In this document: in pieces, positions 85 to 19,252 of the stretch
Numbering within the stretch: position 1 is the stretch's first letter
How the letters are laid out: each line of letters starts with the position of its first letter
Source of the DNA: Candidatus Iainarchaeum sp.
GTDB lineage: Archaea > Iainarchaeota > Iainarchaeia > Iainarchaeales > DTGL01
Direction: 5' to 3'
Assembly: GCA_026413945.1 (NCBI GenBank)
Contig: JAOAJX010000008.1
Span: 1-24,353, forward strand
DNA length: 24,353 nucleotides
Notes under the pieces: model-generated
The model's database searches: none
Told to the model about the DNA's origin: nothing
Seen by the model: only the letters and a program-made list of their open reading frames with translations
Translations under genes and position numbers: made by a program

Positions 85-870
85 GGCGGAATTTCACTGC
101 CAAATATGAAAATTGATTTTGCTCTGCAAACTTTACTATCTGATTATAAAGCAGGAAAATCTCTTGTAGTTTCAGCAAGGAATCTGGGAATAAAAGTGAG
201 CAAGAACTCGGTATTGGTTTCTGTAATTGCTGATAGCCATTTTAATCCTCAAAAATGGGGCATGACTGACCTAAACAAAGAGGAAAGAGGCCAGATGTCT
301 TTTTATACTGGCTATGTTGCTGTTGACAATATAGAAAAAATGAGCGAAGAGAAAAGCGTGAATTATATTATGGCTGCAAGAAGTCCCGGTGAGGTAATAC
401 ATGATATAATCTCAATTAAATTGTCACCGGACCTTCTCGCAATAGTAGCTTGCATAAAGCAATTCAAGGGAAATTGTGATGTTGGTCACATTGCCAAAGA
501 AAATTCCCTTGAATATAAAAACGGATCAGTGCTTGCTTACATTTTGACAAAAAATAATGCGAGGCCATGTGTTGAAACAACTGTCGTCGAAGAGATTCCC
601 GATAAGGTTGACCCAACCATAAAAACCTTCAAGGCATATGTGCCAGTTGCCAAACTTGAAGAACTATCCAATTGTGCTGATGTTGATTTTGTGAGCGGAG
701 TAACTGTAACAGGCATACAGCTTGGAATTTGCTGCATCCTGCTGCTTATTGTTTCTGCAGTATTTGCAATTTATCTGATATTCTTTGTTTATCTGAGAAA
801 GAAGGAAAAAGACAAGGTTGATAAGCTTTGGAATTTATTGGCTTTAAAAAGGCAGAAGGGGGAGCAATGA
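1..870 (+). CDS. 5'-truncated membrane-anchored protein: Gly/Pro repeat, two tandem subtilisin-propeptide (I9-like) domains, C-terminal TM helix
   Basis: Frame 1 is open from base 1 to TGA 868-870. Two similar ~93-aa units end in YTGYVAVDNIEKMSEEKSVNYI and FKAYVPVAKLEELSNCADVDFV. A hydrophobic stretch (ICCILLLIVSAVFAIYLIFFVYL) is followed by RKKEK. The domain call is motif recall, not a search. Confidence 0.7.
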   Translation, partial: GGDFNLPGGLPGLPGGDFNLPGGLPGIPGGISLPNMKIDFALQTLLSDYKAGKSLVVSARNLGIKVSKNSVLVSVIADSHFNPQKWGMTDLNKEERGQMSFYTGYVAVDNIEKMSEEKSVNYIMAARSPGEVIHDIISIKLSPDLLAIVACIKQFKGNCDVGHIAKENSLEYKNGSVLAYILTKNNARPCVETTVVEEIPDKVDPTIKTFKAYVPVAKLEELSNCADVDFVSGVTVTGIQLGICCILLLIVSAVFAIYLIFFVYLRKKEKDKVDKLWNLLALKRQKGEQ

Positions 871-3800
871 AAAAAGCATTTATTCTTGCATTGCTTTTAA
901 TCTTTTTTGTTAGCTTTCCAAATGCTAAAGCAGTGCCAGTAAGTGCTGCAGATTGTAGAGGAAATACTCTTACTTTAAAGGACAACAATTATGAATTTCA
1001 GGGAAATATTTCGTGTGTGAATGTAGTTATTTATGCTCAAAACCAGGACACAACAATTGATTGTAAAGGTGCAAAATTAGAAGCTTATAGGGTTTGGTAT
1101 TACCCAAAAGACGGACGTAAAATTTCTATAAAAAACTGCAAGTTTGTACCTCTTCGCGGATATTCTAGTTATAACTACCACCAATTCCTGGTAGAAAAAA
1201 GTTTTGGCTTAGAGTATATGAATAACACATTTGAGAATACTTATTATAACATTGTAAGAAAGTACTGGTACTCGGGAAAGATTGATATCGACCTTAACTT
1301 GGTTGATAATAATCTGTCGAACTCATACTTCCAACTGTATTTGTATGACTATTATACACAACAGCAAGAATTTAAGCTAAATTTAACAAACAACAAATTG
1401 AACGGTTCCTTATTATACATAAGTTTTTATAACTATTACAATCAATCAACTGGACCAAGAATTTTTGCCAACATTAATAAGAACAATTTTGTAAGCTCTT
1501 ATTTGGGGGTGGTGACATATCACTATTATAGCTCATCGCAGAGTGATATTTACAACAACATCTCGATTGTTGACAACAATTTTGAGTTATCTCAAGTATA
1601 TTTAATATATTACAATTATGGTCAATCTCTTAAAGATGTCAATCTCTATCTTGAAGTTAAAAGGAATTTTTTCAATACTTCTTCTCTTTATGCTTATAAT
1701 TACAGCTACAGATATCCGGCATTCAGGAAAACAATCAGACAAATGCAATCATCCTTGTTGGAATTTTCAGAAAACGATTTTAATATGGCTAATGTACTGC
1801 TATACCTTTACCCAAATAGTTGGTTTAATGACTTAAACAAAATTTTGATTTTCACAAAAAACAAGCTTTATGGCACAAAAATAGATTTTGCAGATTACAG
1901 ATATATACAAAATGGCAAAATTGACTTCTCCTATAATGATGTAAATAGATCTAATATTAACCTTGGTTACTGGAATTACTGGTATTGGTATTATTGGAAT
2001 TGGTGGTATTACCAGTGGTATTATGCATGGTATTACTGGTATTATTATGGAATAACAATTGACCCAAGCATTGGTGAAATTAACTTTATCGGTAATAAAC
2101 TTGAGAAAAGTAAGCTAGATTTACTCGGTTACTGGCCTTCCTCATACTCAAACTTGACAATAAGTGATAACGTTTTCAAAGGATTTTATTGTCCACCAAA
2201 TTTGAACGAAAAAGAATGTAGCAGCTATTATAAAAACATGAGAGGAATATATTGGGTTGGCCTAAGCCAACTAACTATTCCGCCGAGAAACAACACAATT
2301 ATCTCAAATAATGAGTTTTTTGGAGATCTCAATTATGATGGATCAGCGATAACTCTTATGCTTGACCCATATGGAGGCCCATACTATGGGGGTCCTTATG
2401 ATTACTGGTGGATGTGTTATTATTGGGGCTATTGTGGTTGGTATTACTATTACTATTACTATTATTACTATCACTATTATTACTATTGGTATTACTACTA
2501 TTACTGGTATTGGTATTACTACTATTACTGGTATTACTACGCTCGATACTACCCATATAGCTATTGGTATTACTACTATTACTACTATATTTACTGGTAC
2601 TATTACCACTACTATTACTACTGGTACTACTATTACTACTGGTACTACTATGGCTATTACTACCGCTGGTATTACTGGTATTACTATCGATACTACTACT
2701 ATTACTACTGGTACTACTACCGCTATTACTACGGCTATTATCCATTCTTTGACATCTGGGCGAAAGGTGTTTTCGAGATTTCAAACAATTCTTTTAGGGG
2801 CTTTAACAGTGGGCTTGAGACATTGGCTGCGGCAGATGGGCAAACTGCCATAATAAAGAACAATACATTCGAAGACAACAAATATGGCATCAAATATATC
2901 AGTAGCTATGGAACAATGCTAGTTTATAGCAACATTTTTGCTAATAACGATGTTGGAATTGGCGCAATAAGTGGCACAGCTGGTGCTACGCCGTATTTCC
3001 CATATGCTTATCCGTCGGATGGCCCAATCTCTGTATATGACAACCGCTTTGAGAATAATCGCAAATGGGCGATAAAGTATGTGGGTGCTGATATATGGTA
3101 TGCGCCATATTATGGTGCATCAGAGGATGGCATCTACAACTATGATCCAACAAATAGGCGTTCTGGACCGATGTTTACGAGGCAAGAAGTGGATGATTAT
3201 CTGAAGAACTCAAAGACTATGCTTATCTGCATGGCAAATAATGACTTCACTGCAATGCCAAATACTGGCAAGAACGCAAAGGAAGGAGCAATAAGAAGAA
3301 TATCTGAGGCTGCAAACTATAATGGCCAATGCTTTGGCTTTTGTAGCGGCGCAATAAACAGTCCGCCAATCGCTGACTTTGATTCAACAACAGGAAAGGG
3401 TGTTTCAAACCTGACAGTTCATTTCTATGATCGATCTTACGATAAAGATGGCAATATTGTGTCATGGCAATGGGACTTTGGTGATGGCACTTATAGTACA
3501 GATCAGAACCCAGCGCATACCTACACGAGCAATGGCCCTTTTAACGTTACCCTAACAGTTAAAGATAATGGCGGAGCAAAGAATAGCACTCAGAAAAAAA
3601 TAACGCCTTACGATGTGGCTTCCATAAATGAGATTTTGGTGCAAGATATATCTGCAGGCGAAAGCGCTCAGATAAGTGTTACATGCACAAAAGACCTGGA
3701 AGGTACACTCAAAGTGTACTTTGATCCGCTTGGCTCGAAAACAAAGGTTTATGAGTCAAACTACAAATGTAACTCAGGTTCTGTTTCTGTTGGTCCGTTG

Positions 3801-3995
3801 ACAGAAATAGGTGTATACCTTGTAAGATATGACTTAAGCGTACCTGCAAACAAATGCACCAAATGCAACGCGGAGAAAGAGTTCATTGTAAAGAGAAGTG
3901 CTGTTACGACAGCATCAGAAGAGCCAATAGTTGCAGTTGCTGCTTTGCTTATGGTTTTTGTGGTTTTAACAATTAAAAAAAGTGTATGTAAATAA
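867..3995 (+). CDS. Secreted surface protein: right-handed parallel beta-helix repeats, Tyr/Trp-rich inserts, PKD domain, C-terminal membrane anchor
   Basis: ATG 867 overlaps the upstream stop (ATGA) and follows GGGGGAG. Signal peptide MKKAFILALLLIFFVSFPNAKA. Repeated I-x-N-N-x-F strands (ISNNEF, ISNNSF, IKNNTF, VYDNRF). PKD signature WQWDFGDG...NPAHTY...VTLTVKD at about 3357-3605. C-terminal hydrophobic helix followed by KK. Confidence 0.85.
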   Translation: MKKAFILALLLIFFVSFPNAKAVPVSAADCRGNTLTLKDNNYEFQGNISCVNVVIYAQNQDTTIDCKGAKLEAYRVWYYPKDGRKISIKNCKFVPLRGYSSYNYHQFLVEKSFGLEYMNNTFENTYYNIVRKYWYSGKIDIDLNLVDNNLSNSYFQLYLYDYYTQQQEFKLNLTNNKLNGSLLYISFYNYYNQSTGPRIFANINKNNFVSSYLGVVTYHYYSSSQSDIYNNISIVDNNFELSQVYLIYYNYGQSLKDVNLYLEVKRNFFNTSSLYAYNYSYRYPAFRKTIRQMQSSLLEFSENDFNMANVLLYLYPNSWFNDLNKILIFTKNKLYGTKIDFADYRYIQNGKIDFSYNDVNRSNINLGYWNYWYWYYWNWWYYQWYYAWYYWYYYGITIDPSIGEINFIGNKLEKSKLDLLGYWPSSYSNLTISDNVFKGFYCPPNLNEKECSSYYKNMRGIYWVGLSQLTIPPRNNTIISNNEFFGDLNYDGSAITLMLDPYGGPYYGGPYDYWWMCYYWGYCGWYYYYYYYYYYHYYYYWYYYYYWYWYYYYYWYYYARYYPYSYWYYYYYYYIYWYYYHYYYYWYYYYYWYYYGYYYRWYYWYYYRYYYYYYWYYYRYYYGYYPFFDIWAKGVFEISNNSFRGFNSGLETLAAADGQTAIIKNNTFEDNKYGIKYISSYGTMLVYSNIFANNDVGIGAISGTAGATPYFPYAYPSDGPISVYDNRFENNRKWAIKYVGADIWYAPYYGASEDGIYNYDPTNRRSGPMFTRQEVDDYLKNSKTMLICMANNDFTAMPNTGKNAKEGAIRRISEAANYNGQCFGFCSGAINSPPIADFDSTTGKGVSNLTVHFYDRSYDKDGNIVSWQWDFGDGTYSTDQNPAHTYTSNGPFNVTLTVKDNGGAKNSTQKKITPYDVASINEILVQDISAGESAQISVTCTKDLEGTLKVYFDPLGSKTKVYESNYKCNSGSVSVGPLTEIGVYLVRYDLSVPANKCTKCNAEKEFIVKRSAVTTASEEPIVAVAALLMVFVVLTIKKSVCK
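1968..2048 (+). repeat. 27-codon Tyr/Trp tract (14 Y, 9 W)
   Basis: YWNYWYWYYWNWWYYQWYYAWYYWYYY, built mostly from TAT/TAC/TGG codons. Confidence 0.95.
2403..2741 (+). repeat. 113-codon poly-Tyr/Trp low-complexity tract (81 Y, 15 W by hand count)
   Basis: Imperfect TAY/TGG trinucleotide array, in frame with 867..3995 and with no stop codon. Confidence 0.95.
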
Positions 3996-11783: not shown

Positions 11784-13850
11784 TTAACCATGGTGTGCGT
11801 GATGCCTATTTTTGCTTCTTGGCATGCTTACAAAACCATGCGCTTTGAATTTTCTTGCTAACAATATTTGCCTTCTTTTGAGGGCAATAAGTTTTTTCTG
11901 GCGATCTCTTGCGCTAACAAATGCGCAGTACAATGGGACGAAAGCTAAGGTAATCAAAACTACCAGAAGTAAAATGAAATTTGTGCTTAAATCCACGCCT
12001 CTTTCGCTTTCGCTAAAGGACTCTATCTCTTCTTCTAAAAGACCTATCTTTAAAGACAATTGGACTAGTTTAGTGCTTGGAGATTCTAACTCGTTTCTTT
12101 GAATCTGAGCTTCAGCAGAAATAAGCTCATCTTCCAGTTTTTTGGCTTCATCTTCGATTTCAGAAACTTCAAATTCTTTAGCTTTTAAAGCCCTAATTTT
12201 GCTTTTTACTTTTTGTATTCTTTGCTTCAACTCAAAAATAGTTAGTGAATAATCTGTTTTTTCCTTTTGGGCAACATAAAAAGCGCACATTGCTTCCCTC
12301 TGCTGGAAATTTGAATCTGCGCTAATTGTTGAAAGCTTTGCCCTGAAAAAGTAATTGCCGCTCTTCATAGCCTCAGAAATAGTTTCTACTATGTGCTTGT
12401 CAGCTTTTCCACCCGGTTTTATTGCAATTGGTGTGGAGGATGAAACGTATACTTTGCCATTGCTGTCCTCTATCGACCATGAAAGCATGATGTCAGTATA
12501 ATAAGTACCAACATTATAAGCAGAAACATCAAAGTAAGCAGTAGTGCCCGCGGTTACAACAGGGGTTGTGCAAAGCGCTGATAAATCATACCTCAGCTCA
12601 CCACCGAGATCAATAAGCTTGGTCTCCGTAGCAAACTTAGTTGATTTGTCTATTGAGTAAACATTGACCGACATTACATGCAAGCCAGATGCTTCCGGTG
12701 TCCATGGCAAAAGCATTGAAAATCTTTGCTTTGAGAGCGGCTCAACACCCAAGTAAGTGCGCTCGTCTATATATTCTATCTCAGCCTCCTGCTTTATTAC
12801 TACAGAGATGACAATATCAATCTTTTTATCTGAAAGGTTTTCTATAATCCCGCTTATAAAGCTAGCCTCACCAACTTTCAATGGCTCAACCTTTAATTCT
12901 GAAATTTTTACTTCTGGCTTAACAAATGGCTCAGGCGTTTGTTGTGTAGGTGTTGGCGTTATAGTTATTTGGCCGCCACCGCCTCCGCCACCACCCCCAC
13001 TGCCGCCCCCGCCGCCCGGAATACATTCCCCACAGTCCTTTGGGCAGTTTTTGCAGTTTTCACCAGCTTCACAAATTCCATTGCCGCAAACCAAAATTGA
13101 TGTTACCCTGAATTTTCCATTATAATCAGCCGCATTCTTTCCCGAAGAAAAAGTTACATTGTAGCGGTATTCTCCCAAGATGTTTTGGGCTGTGAAAGTA
13201 TATGCATAGTAACCAGGTGTTGATAATTCTACAAGCGTTGCTTTATTTACAAAAACATTGCCTGATGGCTGCCAAATAGTTATCCTTCCTTCTGCATGTT
13301 TAAGTGGCTGCGAAGATACACTTGCAAAGAACATTAATGTTGCGTTTTCGCCAGGAGCAAATACATTGTTTCCAACTGTGGTAATACTTATTTCATAGGT
13401 TCCACAATAAAAGTATTCGCTTGCTATGGCAGTATTTTTATTTTCGTCGCTTGCAGTAACATATAAAGTGTATACCCCGTTTTGTTCAAATTTAAAACTT
13501 CTAATGTAATTGCCATCACCGACTTCGTAAAAGTCCAATGTTTGAGTGCTGCCATCCGGCTTAAGCATGTATCCCAAAACATCTAGGTCCTCAACGCCAT
13601 TGCCAGCAGCCAAGGCCTTGATTTTAATAATTTTTGTTTCACCGAGGTTTGGAGTAAAGTTGGCATCAATATATATTGAGTAATAGCTTACCGCTTCAGA
13701 ATACCATGTCAGAACAGTGCTTTCAGCTGTGCCCGAGATCCCAAAATCAAAAAGGAGTGATATTATGAGCAGCAGCGTCAGAACTGTAGCCACTTTTCTT
13801 AATTGCATGTCAATAATAAGGTCTTGCCATTTAAATTTTTTTTGTTTCAA
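11784..13850 (-). CDS. Secreted, C-terminally membrane-anchored multi-Ig-like surface protein (candidate fibre base/anchor)
   Basis: Signal-like N-terminus, beta-rich domains, CGNGICEAGENCKNCPKDC, a poly-Gly plus Pro/Thr linker, CARDB-like repeats, a coiled coil, TM FILLLVVLITLAFVPLY and a basic tail. The start is uncertain (TTG 13850 or ATG 13808). Confidence 0.8.
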   Translation of the reverse strand: MKQKKFKWQDLIIDMQLRKVATVLTLLLIISLLFDFGISGTAESTVLTWYSEAVSYYSIYIDANFTPNLGETKIIKIKALAAGNGVEDLDVLGYMLKPDGSTQTLDFYEVGDGNYIRSFKFEQNGVYTLYVTASDENKNTAIASEYFYCGTYEISITTVGNNVFAPGENATLMFFASVSSQPLKHAEGRITIWQPSGNVFVNKATLVELSTPGYYAYTFTAQNILGEYRYNVTFSSGKNAADYNGKFRVTSILVCGNGICEAGENCKNCPKDCGECIPGGGGGSGGGGGGGGGQITITPTPTQQTPEPFVKPEVKISELKVEPLKVGEASFISGIIENLSDKKIDIVISVVIKQEAEIEYIDERTYLGVEPLSKQRFSMLLPWTPEASGLHVMSVNVYSIDKSTKFATETKLIDLGGELRYDLSALCTTPVVTAGTTAYFDVSAYNVGTYYTDIMLSWSIEDSNGKVYVSSSTPIAIKPGGKADKHIVETISEAMKSGNYFFRAKLSTISADSNFQQREAMCAFYVAQKEKTDYSLTIFELKQRIQKVKSKIRALKAKEFEVSEIEDEAKKLEDELISAEAQIQRNELESPSTKLVQLSLKIGLLEEEIESFSESERGVDLSTNFILLLVVLITLAFVPLYCAFVSARDRQKKLIALKRRQILLARKFKAHGFVSMPRSKNRHHAHHG

Positions 13851-15703: not shown

Positions 15704-18700
15704 ATGTGTTTAATGCATTTAGATGAAAGGGCAAGATCGAGCTTTTTTGCCGTATCTTTGTTTCTTCTGCTGTTTACCCCACTTTTAACTGTCTTTAGTG
15801 ATGTTGCAAATGATAATTTGGTTGTGCAAGCCCCATTAGAAGATCTTGCGGAAAAAGAGAAGAAGGTGCCTGAAATAGAGATTTCAATAGTTTCCCCACT
15901 CAATAGCGAATCAGTGAGTGGCTTGGCTGTTGTCATAGCTGTTATACAGCCAATAAGTGAGGTAACTTCAGCTTGGTTTGAGATAAACGGAAAAGAACTT
16001 GGCGAGCTTTACAAGGAGAAAAATTTTTCATCTGATTTTAATACTTTCGCATTTGTTAACGGTGCGTACACCTTTTCAGTTCATGCTTGTATTGGGGATT
16101 ATTGCTCATTTGAAGCCATAGAAATTGAGATTAATAACCAAGAACTCCAGCCAACTCCCGCAGAAAGTCCCACAGTTCATCAAGATAGTCAAACACCTGA
16201 GCCAACTCAGCAAGCAACAACTACGCCAACAGTTGATGAAAATCAAGCGCAGATACCTAGCCAGCCATCAGAACAAGAACCAGAAAAAAAATATTCGATC
16301 AGGCCATCAAACATATTTTCAGCAGCAGTCTTTTATGATGATAAAAACGAGCCTATTGCTTCGGGCACTGATACTGTTTATGTGCCAGCTGGCACATACA
16401 ATGTTTCGGTATCTTTTTTCGAGTTCACTGTTTCAGAGATAAAGATTGCTCAAGCCTTAATTGAATCTGATGCAATGCTGTTTGAAGTAGATGGCAACAT
16501 TGATGTAAATAGCATTACTTTTAATGACCAGAACTTTTACCTTAAAGAAGTAATAGCTTTTATGTCTGGGCTTACTTTTAATGAAGGCTCTGCAACCTTT
16601 AGGCTCCCGCCCTTTTCTGACGCAATTTTTGTCTGCGAAGATTGGGATTTCCAAAAGAAGGAATGCGGGGCTAACTTTACTCTTCTTGCAGAGGTAAGTG
16701 GTGCTGAAGCAACCATTCCCTTCAGCCAAGGCCAAAAGGCCTTTGTCTTTGCTGAGAAATATGAGGAAGAAATAGTTCCGCCGGACTTCAATGCTGATGA
16801 TTTCGAGAAAGATTTGCCAGAGTCAAAGATAAAAAAATCTGGGAAAAAACATTTTTTACTCTCAAAGCCACGCCAAAAATACTTGGCAAATGAAATGCCT
16901 GTTTTTGAATTCCAGGCACTTAATGATATAAATGAAGCTGCTGATGTTGAAATAGAAGCATACCTCATTTTTCCTGATGGCACAGAAACCCAGATTGAAA
17001 TGAAAAAGATACAAAAAAAAGCAAAAGGCCTTTTTAATATAATTGTTCCTGTTCCTAGAAGCTTCAAGGCTGGCAGGTATAACTTAAAGGTCAAGATCTT
17101 CGACGGTAATGAAGTCTCTGAGCATTCATCTTCTTTTGAGTGGGGCCTTGTTGCAGTTAATACAGAGAAGAGCATCTACGCACCAAACGAAACAGCAGTT
17201 TTTCACATCGTTGTTCTTGACCGCGAAAGTTACGGCGTAAGTGGTGCTGAAGTAAATCTTGGCGTTTTGTTTCCCGATGGTGAAACACAGACAATTTCTA
17301 CAATAGATGGCACAATAGCTGAAACAACATCAGCAGGCGTCTACATCGGCGAAATGAGAGTTGGTGGCGAAGGCATTTACAAAATTATGGTTCAGGCTAA
17401 AGCCCAGAATATCGATGCGGAAATACATAGCTCCTTTGAAGTAAGGCAGAATGTTCCCTTTGAAATAATCAGGCGCGCAGCAACAAAGATTGATCCTGCT
17501 GTGCAACCGAATAAGGTTGAAATATTTATAAAGGCTTCCGATGCTCAGAAAAAAATAACTGCCAGGGAATTCGTGCCAGCGGAATTTGAAATAGAGAAAA
17601 ACAAAAATTTTTCAATCAAAACCAAAGGCAAAGAAAAAATAATTGAGTGGAAAGACGTTGAATTCAATGCCGATGGGGAGGCCAAATTGACTTACTACTA
17701 TTCAGTGCCAGATAGAAAGCCATGGCTTTACAATATAGGGCCTATCGAAATCGATTACAAAGCTGGTGCTTTTACAGAAGCCAGAGCATGGATGATAGCA
17801 GTCGACGCCAATCCCACAACAATATTTTTCTATCGCCGCTCTGCAGATTGGGTGCCAAGAGAACCGATGCCCAATGCAGGTCAACTTCCTCATTATTTGT
17901 TGTCTTCATCATGGGCCGGCTTTGGTATGAATGACGTTGCTGGCACCACGGCTCAATGCCATAATAATCCATCTCCTGGGCCAACTGGCTCAGGTGCGGT
18001 TGCTTTAGCTGGCTTTACGTCACCGCCACTCGTAACACAATCAATAAGCGCCACAACATGGAGGATTACTTCAGATATGAATGAAAGCGCAGCTAATGAC
18101 AACGCTTATCCATATACAATTCTTATGAAATGGAACAGAAACGATACTCCAGGCACAATCATTGTTTCAGAGCGGCGAATCAGCGGTAGTGAGCTCACAA
18201 CGTCAATACGCAGAGACAGCGTATCAGTAACTGGTAGTGCTGTTACTTTTAACAGAGGTGACAAGCTTTACGTTGAACTCGATGTGAATGCTGTTGCTGG
18301 CAGCACTATTGTAGGTACTGTTTGCTTTGGCGGAAATAATGCTGGAACAAGAGATGGCAACATAATATCGCCAAGCATCCGTCTTGCCGGCAATCTCGAT
18401 ACAGCAATAGTCTCACCACAGAACAATTCTAAAAAGGTTATAAATACGGATTTTGATGTGAATGTCAGAGGCACATGCATAAATTATTCTTGTGGTGATA
18501 CTAATGTCACATTAAGGTACTGCATTAATCCTGACAGTGGCTGCTTACAATGGCTTGACATGAATACTGACCCAAACAGTCCGCTTTACATCTCTTCCGG
18601 CAGTTATTTTAGAAGAGATGATCTGCTCGATGTCTCAGATACAAACTATTTTGTATTTACTATAAAAGGAACCCAAACTGGCAAATACACTATAAGATCA

Positions 18701-19252
18701 AAAATAGATTCTATATGGAGCGAAGACATAAACTATTCAAATAATAGCAATGGTGACATAAATGTTACAATAAAATTGCCACCAAACTATGCTTTCTCAC
18801 TTTCTTATCCAGCTACCGGCTGTACTTATGGTAAAGGGAGCATTGATGAAGACAGCAGCTGCGATAGGGCTTACTTCGAGCCAACAGATCTTACAGGTCT
18901 TTCAGACCAAAACAAAGTGGATCCACAAGGCCAAAATTCATCAACCCCCTTTTTCGTTTATGATAACCAGAGCACAGGGGAAAATGACATGAATTTTACA
19001 CTGCATCTAAACTCTGCGCTGCCAAGCACACTTAAACTAAAGGTGTCGCAAAGCTATAATGGCTGGTACCTTACTTGCTCAGGCGATCCAGCTTCCAACT
19101 GTGTGGAAATAGATTCCACACCGAAGAATATTGGCAAGGCAATATATAGCACAGGCACCAAAGATCTCAATATTTTTATTTTTGCGGACTTTATTGGAGC
19201 TGGTGTTGGTACCACTGACAGAAATGCAATAAGCACAAGCATTGAGAGCTGA
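15704..19252 (+). CDS. Large secreted multidomain surface protein (Ig-like and MG2-like domains) ending in a subunit-like domain (candidate tip adhesin)
   Basis: Signal peptide, Ig-like domain, P/T/Q linker, WGLVAVNTEKSIYAPNETA (MG2-like) and no C-terminal TM helix. The last ~158 aa align with 14928..15566. Confidence 0.8.
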   Translation: MCLMHLDERARSSFFAVSLFLLLFTPLLTVFSDVANDNLVVQAPLEDLAEKEKKVPEIEISIVSPLNSESVSGLAVVIAVIQPISEVTSAWFEINGKELGELYKEKNFSSDFNTFAFVNGAYTFSVHACIGDYCSFEAIEIEINNQELQPTPAESPTVHQDSQTPEPTQQATTTPTVDENQAQIPSQPSEQEPEKKYSIRPSNIFSAAVFYDDKNEPIASGTDTVYVPAGTYNVSVSFFEFTVSEIKIAQALIESDAMLFEVDGNIDVNSITFNDQNFYLKEVIAFMSGLTFNEGSATFRLPPFSDAIFVCEDWDFQKKECGANFTLLAEVSGAEATIPFSQGQKAFVFAEKYEEEIVPPDFNADDFEKDLPESKIKKSGKKHFLLSKPRQKYLANEMPVFEFQALNDINEAADVEIEAYLIFPDGTETQIEMKKIQKKAKGLFNIIVPVPRSFKAGRYNLKVKIFDGNEVSEHSSSFEWGLVAVNTEKSIYAPNETAVFHIVVLDRESYGVSGAEVNLGVLFPDGETQTISTIDGTIAETTSAGVYIGEMRVGGEGIYKIMVQAKAQNIDAEIHSSFEVRQNVPFEIIRRAATKIDPAVQPNKVEIFIKASDAQKKITAREFVPAEFEIEKNKNFSIKTKGKEKIIEWKDVEFNADGEAKLTYYYSVPDRKPWLYNIGPIEIDYKAGAFTEARAWMIAVDANPTTIFFYRRSADWVPREPMPNAGQLPHYLLSSSWAGFGMNDVAGTTAQCHNNPSPGPTGSGAVALAGFTSPPLVTQSISATTWRITSDMNESAANDNAYPYTILMKWNRNDTPGTIIVSERRISGSELTTSIRRDSVSVTGSAVTFNRGDKLYVELDVNAVAGSTIVGTVCFGGNNAGTRDGNIISPSIRLAGNLDTAIVSPQNNSKKVINTDFDVNVRGTCINYSCGDTNVTLRYCINPDSGCLQWLDMNTDPNSPLYISSGSYFRRDDLLDVSDTNYFVFTIKGTQTGKYTIRSKIDSIWSEDINYSNNSNGDINVTIKLPPNYAFSLSYPATGCTYGKGSIDEDSSCDRAYFEPTDLTGLSDQNKVDPQGQNSSTPFFVYDNQSTGENDMNFTLHLNSALPSTLKLKVSQSYNGWYLTCSGDPASNCVEIDSTPKNIGKAIYSTGTKDLNIFIFADFIGAGVGTTDRNAISTSIES

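Follow-up and report, generated by a model that had tools for sequence, protein, structure and literature searches.

What does a protein segment built almost entirely from 2 aromatic residues do on the surface of an archaeon, and is it a genuine part of the protein? The question is raised by contig JAOAJX010000008.1 of Candidatus Iainarchaeum sp., from a DPANN lineage (assembly GCA_026413945.1), which we analyzed over its full length of 24,353 nucleotides (nt) and refer to below as the window; it is a whole contig of a genome of ~0.95 Mb, 92% complete, with 38-39% G+C. A gene in this window for a surface protein of 1042 amino acids (aa; 867-3995, + strand, as are all features of this gene) contains a 113-aa tract made mostly of Tyr and Trp (2403-2741; aa 526-638, all residue numbers being counted from the TTG codon at 828). 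We found that the tract is a genuine, selected part of the protein, and we tentatively read it as an aromatic contact surface.

Composition of the Tyr/Trp tract

The tract contains 81 Tyr and 15 Trp residues together with 4 Gly, 4 Arg, 2 Cys, 2 His, and 1 each of Met, Ala, Pro, Ser, and Ile, so that Tyr and Trp occupy 96 of 113 positions (85%; Tyr alone, 72%), where the genome-wide frequencies (Tyr 3.7%, Trp 0.9%) would give about 5 by chance. Tyr runs reach a maximum of 10, the 16-residue block YYYHYYYYWYYYYYWY is present twice (aa 546-561 and 591-606) in different synonymous codons, and WYYYRYYY is also present twice. The recurrence of the 16-residue block is above chance, as a repeat of this length was reached in 8 of 1000 residue shuffles, with a shuffle mean of 6.9. 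Further, a conserved C-x5-C pair lies close to the start of the tract, and G, R, P, and A positions are conserved. Autocorrelation of Trp and non-aromatic positions gave weak signals at lags 6 and 45 and no clear coil-like period.

Phe is absent from the tract (0 of 113 residues, vs 51 in the whole protein), and the residues that lie 1 base from Tyr (Phe, Ser, Cys, His, Asn, and Asp) almost never appear in it. The absence of Phe suggests that the chemistry of Tyr and Trp is required, and not hydrophobicity as such; Tyr and Trp are preferred to Phe in sugar-binding sites, in protein recognition, and at lipid-water interfaces. The residue counts, the repeats and their differing codons, the Tyr runs of up to 10, and the lack of Phe had all been described in an initial annotation of this DNA and were borne out exactly, with the 5 single residues (M, A, P, S, and I) missing from its list.

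Conservation of the tract across 3 species

We searched for homologues in 61 genomes, comprising the source genome (G000) and 60 relatives. Matches were obtained in 21, and only in G002 and G004, 2 congeneric species, did they extend beyond the PKD/C-terminal module of the protein. Both carry full-length orthologues (77% and 75% identity, respectively) in open frames of 1067 and 1058 aa without stops. In the 3-species alignment, the tract is of equal length with 0 gap columns, and 9 of its 113 columns vary, while a first, Trp-rich tract of the same protein (aa 380-408) varies at 2 of 29 columns, also without gaps. Elsewhere, the variable columns are 161 of 347 for the N-terminal helix, 36 of 117 for the middle region, 37 of 202 for the post-tract region, and 37 of 200 for the PKD domain plus C-terminus, which gives the tract the second-lowest variable share among 6 protein regions, behind the first tract. 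Its W, G, R, P, and C residues keep their positions in all 3 species, and any 2 species differ at 7 of 113 residues.

At the codon level, among Tyr columns shared by a pair of species, the choice between TAT and TAC differs at 32 of 80, 32 of 80, and 22 of 81; full randomization would give 34-39 differences. Nei-Gojobori counts for the tract gave 27-41.5 silent vs 10-14 replacement differences per pair, and the proportion of replacement differences (pN) was 0.033-0.046 in the tract vs 0.09-0.26 in the N-terminal part. The ratio of pN to its silent counterpart (a pN/pS-type ratio) was 0.016 for G002 vs G004, with silent divergence (dS) near saturation, and was not computable for the other 2 pairs because the silent-site proportion exceeded 1. 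Arg codons swap between CGA/CGC and AGA/AGG among the species, a change that is silent in this frame only, and 3 lineage-specific swaps between Tyr and Trp took 2 base changes each. Since residues are nearly fixed while the choice of TAT or TAC is nearly randomized, the alignments indicate translation of the tract and strong purifying selection that acts on the identity of its residues, their order, and its length. The initial annotation had proposed a comparison of tract length and dN/dS among relatives and had named frameshifts or stops in their tracts as evidence that would count against it; length proved to be fixed, replacement change was low, and neither frameshifts nor stops were present in the tracts of G002 and G004.

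These data also bear on the explanation that the tract is an artifact, arising from misassembly, from slippage in a microsatellite of TAY (TAT or TAC) codons, or as a by-product of another reading frame. DNA repeats of period 3, 6, and 9 are detectable in the tract, and 2 other frames across it are open by composition. However, the repeats are imperfect, with units from Tandem Repeats Finder (TRF) matching at only 63-81%, and identical-codon runs are no longer than 3-4. Of the alternative frames, one is broken by a stop, and in the others the TAT/TAC differences would alter the encoded residue. The + frame connects the domain matches on either side of the tract, and, as first annotated, it stays open throughout and then resumes beta-helix and PKD sequence. 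Assemblies from 3 species, 2 of them from species other than the source, agree on the length of the tract. A separately made assembly of a public run points the same way: it gave one 8588-nt contig on which both flanks matched at the same offset (70), implying an equal tract length, although the run may be the window's own source and so is not independent data. Read placement skipped 2431-2650 as repeat, and only the flank offset was used. The microsatellite class was rejected on the imperfect TRF units, the short codon runs, and the 0 gap columns in the 3 species, and we regard an artifact of any of these kinds as hardly credible.

Tyr codon usage in the tract is shifted (46 TAC and 35 TAT, beside 15 TGG for Trp): TAC makes up 57% of Tyr codons there, compared with 34% across the genome and 30% elsewhere in the gene. 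Fisher tests of the tract vs the remainder of the gene gave P values of 4e-4 in G000, 0.076 in G002, and 6e-7 in G004, and the shift may reflect translation of the run draining one tRNA. In the G000 genome, ARAGORN made a sole tRNA-Tyr call (contig position 148290-148382, 93 nt, anticodon 'ata') and left tRNA-Trp uncalled among 38 tRNAs; the odd tRNA-Tyr and the uncalled tRNA-Trp are probably intron-containing archaeal tRNAs misread by the program. Identical-codon runs in the 3 species are shorter than in synonymous shuffles (P of 0.11, 0.24, and 0.01), and the interspersion of TAT and TAC gives a weak hint of selection against slippage-prone perfect repeats.

Architecture of the surface protein

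The reading frame is open over 828-3995, and the listed open frame begins at TTG 828. ATG 867 is the likely start because it overlaps the upstream stop (ATGA) and opens a signal-peptide-like segment. From this start, the protein comprises a putative signal peptide recognized by its sequence pattern (MKKAFILALLLIFFVSFPNAKA; 867-932); an N-terminal right-handed beta-helix with coils of 25-31 aa (957-1964), identified by coil layout, AlphaFold2, and VIA-align; the first aromatic tract, Trp-rich and 29 aa long (GYWNYWYWYYWNWWYYQWYYAWYYWYYYG; 1965-2051); middle coils (2052-2402) ending in a Pro/Gly/Tyr lead-in (PYGGPYYGGPYD; 2367-2402); the 113-aa tract; a second run of beta-helix coils (2742-3347); a PKD domain (3357-3596); an Ig/FN3-like beta-sandwich stalk domain (3597-3893); and a predicted C-terminal membrane helix (IVAVAALLMVFVVLTI; 3927-3974) followed by the basic tail KKSVCK. 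Each N-terminal coil opens with h-x-N-N-x-F and continues into a Tyr-rich strand (e.g., YFQLYLYDYY and LLYISFYNYY), and the N-N-x-F motif is found again in the middle coils.

Pfam Beta_helix (PF13229) matched aa 649-747 (2772-3068) above its curated cut-off (27.6 vs 25.9 bits), and the PKD profiles PF18911 and PF00801 were above cut-off at aa 844-923, with 69.4 and 55.6 bits, respectively (PKD_4 E 2.7e-19). A sequence search of PDB matched PKD chains only, e.g., collagenase ColH (E 1.7e-23), and no enzyme-family profile matched the protein in the Pfam and NCBIfam scans. The stalk domain, which is common to the paralogues, was delimited from AlphaFold2 strands with a block predicted local distance difference test (pLDDT) of 54-65; a Foldseek search of the full model against PDB gave weak FN3 matches for it (E 4e-3) and no match at E <= 0.001. 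At the C-terminus, the membrane helix is conserved in the orthologues and in P0004, a homologous protein described below. No archaeosortase-type CTERM sorting signal (PGF-CTERM or similar) was found with NCBIfam at E <= 0.01, where the only match was a sub-threshold one of PKD type, and we read the C-terminus as a plain predicted membrane helix with a basic tail. The putative signal peptide, beta-helix, PKD domain, Ig-like domain, and predicted anchor agree with the initial placement of the tract inside a secreted, membrane-anchored surface protein.

The module of PKD domain, beta-sandwich, and membrane anchor is common to 6 other open frames of the genome, each with a different N-terminal head. 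PKD-bearing open frames other than this gene number 11 (contigs C14-C19), including the 6 with the full module; in a genome of this small size, they amount to a family of displayed surface proteins. Because the stalk-and-anchor part is shared by 6 open frames with different heads, it looks like a display scaffold for different heads. This gene adds a new member to the beta-helix/PKD surface proteins of archaea.

Fold of the head

AlphaFold2 was run on the full-length 3-sequence alignment and, separately, on aa 364-698. The full-length model had a mean pLDDT of 42.1. Over aa ~30-367, strands recur every 25-31 residues with a block pLDDT of 50-90, giving a beta-helix at moderate confidence, and the model is of low confidence after residue 418. 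Model residues about 30-440 were compared with 48,161 solved chains using VIA-align, which recovered the 3-stranded coil of a parallel beta-helix (Z 24.3, 306 aligned residues, root-mean-square deviation 3.1). The fold neighbors included the phage tailspike CBA120 TSP3 (Z 24.3), the polysaccharide lyase RbmB (22.3), the pneumococcal adhesin PfbA (21.4), AlgG (20.9), and NosD (19.9).

The fold neighbors of the head, comprising tailspikes, polysaccharide lyases, epimerases, and an adhesin, are all glycan-binding or adhesive, and beta-helix proteins of this pectate-lyase-like class share with it both the fold and the extracellular site; the coils here carry an Asn-containing motif. Identity to CBA120 TSP3, RbmB, PfbA, AlgG, and NosD is 4-14%, and no aromatic tract was present in the alignments and sequences compared. 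Unlike in those fold neighbors, the beta-helix here is interrupted by Tyr/Trp segments of 29 and 113 aa.

Searches for comparable tracts

When the whole genome was scanned in 6 frames, no second open frame of 100 aa or longer contained 11 or more Tyr or Trp in any stretch of 20 residues. Across the phylum, 8 consecutive TAY codons were matched in 9 of 215 genomes, and a long open frame was found only in the 3 orthologues, the remaining matches being (TAT)n repeats in short frames (9-95 aa) or a run that encodes Asn/Ser on the opposite strand. The latter run (L047; G145:C19:1-1525) spans 16 mixed TAT/TAC codons at a contig edge and, on that strand, forms the poly-Asn/Ser tail of a protein of at least 468 aa; a DNA motif of this type can serve another composition.

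Using HMMER, aa 14-840 matched 3 of 1.84 billion representative proteins, P0003, P0004, and P0005. P0005, a low-complexity protein of His, Trp, Tyr, and Gly, was rejected as a relative because its match is compositional only. The P0004 cluster (899 aa, 3 members) is the only sequence homologue of the head that was found, and like the protein studied here, it has a signal peptide, NosD/Beta_helix coils (Pfam Beta_helix, 44.5 bits), a PKD domain, an Ig-like domain, and a membrane helix at the C-terminus. The C-terminal modules of P0004 and the present protein are 34% identical (E 3e-29), and hhalign aligned the post-tract coils with P0004 (E 1.6e-5) in an alignment that begins just after the tract. 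P0004 differs in having no Tyr/Trp tract anywhere.

P0003 was the best HMMER match (E 8.3e-8), through the tract alone. Its cluster (4 members, source label 'merc') consists of dockerin-containing acidic proteins that share with the present protein a Tyr-dominated tract of ~110+ residues, with unrelated flanks (Dockerin_1 and a weak LDL-receptor-A match), almost no Trp, and interspersed G, N, and A. Tract length and order differ widely among the 4 members (P0003 and P0007-P0009), which cluster at 90% identity, and in one member the tract joins repeated modules, behaving as a repeat linker would. This family offers a precedent for reading the archaeal tract as a passive low-complexity spacer between modules with no sequence-specific role. 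Such a reading is improbable here because, in contrast to the widely varying P0003 tract, this one keeps a single length and the same W, G, R, P, and C positions in species that are already saturated at silent sites. The class of disordered linkers and homorepeats was likewise rejected given the 9 of 113 variable columns, the fixed positions, and the internal repeat beyond shuffles. Prion-like domains of the FUS type, in which Tyr, together with Arg, is the interacting residue, are intracellular and disordered, carry a Tyr every 6-8 residues among Gly/Ser/Gln spacers, and evolve in length; unlike them, the extracellular tract described here consists of Tyr to 72% and does not change in length.

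Other searches returned no relatives. A word-indexed search of 5.8 billion proteins with aa 400-840 gave 4538 candidates, none of which scored, and the exact protein is not in that collection. A look-alike search of the ESM Atlas with aa 505-650 gave no usable match. Two metagenome pattern scans, with the first tract and with the post-tract coils, gave 220 and 590 matches, none of them relatives, and a Bacteroidota locus from a pattern scan was rejected as an ordinary multi-PKD protein. Outside subscription journals, the accessible literature on natural poly-Tyr or Tyr/Trp tracts and on aromatic-rich DPANN proteins contained no description of such a tract. Long Tyr or Trp runs are among the rarest protein features, at a frequency that these searches do not quantify, and the rarity of such tracts is probable rather than proven because the composition correction of HMMER may hide further cases. 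The conserved Tyr/Trp tract is a type of compositionally biased region without a described counterpart. The tblastn matches ended at the tract, and together with the empty word-indexed search, this is a caution for annotation pipelines, as low-complexity filters hide the gene from searches.

Candidate roles of the tract

We consider it close to an even chance that the tract is an aromatic adhesion or recognition pad. The tract sits between 2 runs of right-handed beta-helix coils, where the helix may continue across it or the tract may join 2 helix modules; these coils would form the outward-facing head of a C-terminally anchored cell-surface protein. The 113-aa tract, the Trp-rich first tract, and the recurrent Tyr-rich coil strands would together present one large Tyr/Trp contact surface, which would stick the cell to another surface via ring stacking, CH-pi contacts with sugars, and hydrogen bonds; candidate targets would be a glycan-coated envelope, a polysaccharide, or a partner cell. 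A contact role is suggested because the fold class of the head is used by glycan-binding enzymes, tailspikes, and adhesins, and a defined arrangement, rather than a floppy spacer, because the length and the W, G, R, P, and C positions are fixed and the 16-residue repeat is beyond chance. From this we infer that the tract is exposed, has a defined fold, and acts in adhesion or recognition.

Aromatic binding surfaces are known from the planar Trp/Tyr strips of carbohydrate-binding modules, Tyr-dominated antibody paratopes, the Trp/Tyr belts of membrane proteins, and tryptophan-zipper hairpins. These surfaces likewise prefer Tyr and Trp over Phe for stacking and hydrogen bonds, but they use 3-10 aromatics on an ordinary scaffold, whereas here the 96 aromatics are the segment itself.

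Several observations weigh against an adhesive role. Both tracts appear in AlphaFold2 as low-confidence helices (pLDDT ~20-30), and the separate run on aa 364-698 gave a mean of 34.8 and no usable model. The segment of 96 aromatics might be buried, e.g., in an oligomer interface, and the beta-helix might have an enzymatic instead of an adhesive function. Three sequences allow a coarse estimate of site-wise constraint, with synonymous sites saturated. The public runs holding the stretch amount to one DNA run, labeled hot springs metagenome, with 0 RNA runs listed. A surface adhesive patch, among the roles first suggested, remains the best candidate reading. The 'host contact' attached to it is uncertain: according to a review, an independent life is possible for a member of this phylum, and the organism may have no host (PMC6349945).

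The same uncertainty touches the possibility that the tract is a membrane-interface element, lying in or gripping the membrane of a partner or host for contact, lipid uptake, or fusion. Its composition of Tyr and Trp without Phe and its location in the distal head of a protein anchored at the cell surface would suit such an element, as would the often episymbiotic life reported for DPANN archaea. Against this, the tract has no hydrophobic core segment, 4 Arg and the Gly residues are scattered through it, and a host is not established for the lineage (PMC6349945). We consider a membrane-interface element quite unlikely.

A structural role without any ligand would follow if the tract were a staple, that is, a self-stacked aromatic zipper or core stabilizing the head at high temperature, or an oligomer interface. 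Many tailspike-like beta-helices are trimers, and the nearest folds of the head include trimeric tailspikes; the fixed length and position-specific W, G, R, P, and C would fit a packed structure, and the only run holding the stretch carries the hot springs label. However, P0004 and the 6 paralogous surface proteins manage without the tract, stabilization leaves the exclusion of Phe unexplained, and no model or oligomer prediction speaks in its favor. A staple is unlikely, in our judgment.

Tyr and Trp are redox-active residues, and the initial annotation had also suggested hole-hopping chains, dityrosine cross-links, DOPA (dihydroxyphenylalanine) adhesives, and an electron conduit. The extracellular position of a tract made of such residues would suit a redox or cross-linking role, and oxidizing enzymes of neighboring organisms or abiotic oxidants could serve as sources. 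In the 92%-complete genome, however, Cu-oxidase_3 and DyP peroxidase had 0 matches, with controls matching in 6 of 14 and 5 of 14 genomes, respectively; none of 1584 open frames of at least 100 aa had two or more CxxCH motifs; and no cofactor-binding motif flanks the tract. A tyrosinase search carries no weight, as the control itself gave no match. A multihaem or conductive-filament electron conduit was rejected because redox cofactor proteins, sought as frames with at least 2 CxxCH motifs, were absent from the genome. With no partner among Cu-oxidase_3, DyP, and multi-CxxCH frames, the redox and cross-linking suggestions did not find support, and we hold them to be very improbable.

Returning to the contact pad, a more specific form of it is possible but doubtful: both tracts would fold into a defined domain of stacked Tyr/Trp rings, with which a DPANN archaeon would grapple other cells by their envelope or membrane. 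We know of no solved structure that represents such an architecture. If it exists, proteins can build a stable, specific, and evolvable fold from essentially 2 aromatic residues.

Genomic context

Immediately upstream lies the 3' part of another gene, P0002 (1-870, + strand), which is cut by the contig start inside its repeat and has no Pfam or NCBIfam match. The encoded protein has tandem Pro/Gly repeats (GGDFNLPGGLPG; 42-nt unit at 1-89), a globular region, and a membrane helix at the C-terminus. The stop codon of P0002 lies in a 4-base overlap (ATGA) with the start of the Tyr/Trp gene, and the 2 genes are predicted to be translationally coupled through this overlap. An orthologue of P0002, 75% identical and with the same 4-base overlap, lies upstream in G002 (L009 161-1543). 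Aromatic surfaces often bind Pro-rich segments, and the products of P0002 and the Tyr/Trp gene might interact.

A more distant congener (G001) has the downstream deacetylase/FMN-reductase pair but lacks the surface-protein gene, and because of this, the downstream neighbors appear not to be functionally tied to the tract gene. The window also carries ordinary cellular genes, including GrpE, DnaK, DnaJ, and a KaiC-like ATPase. Two large open frames, 15704-19252 (+ strand, 1182 aa) and 11784-13850 (- strand, 688 aa), have weak domain matches only (MG2, 1.3e-9, and sub-threshold YtkA/Filamin) and are likely further surface proteins.

Significance

Low-complexity tracts usually drift in length. 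That a tract of 85% Tyr and Trp is the second most conserved of 6 regions in its protein points to position-specific structure or function encoded by 2 residue types. If the tract folds, it would extend what is thought possible in the relation of protein sequence to structure, and it may be of interest as a natural adhesive or pi-stacked material. To our knowledge, very few molecules are known for archaeal attachment to surfaces or partners, and if the tract is a contact pad, this protein would be a concrete candidate for such attachment in a small-genome archaeon.

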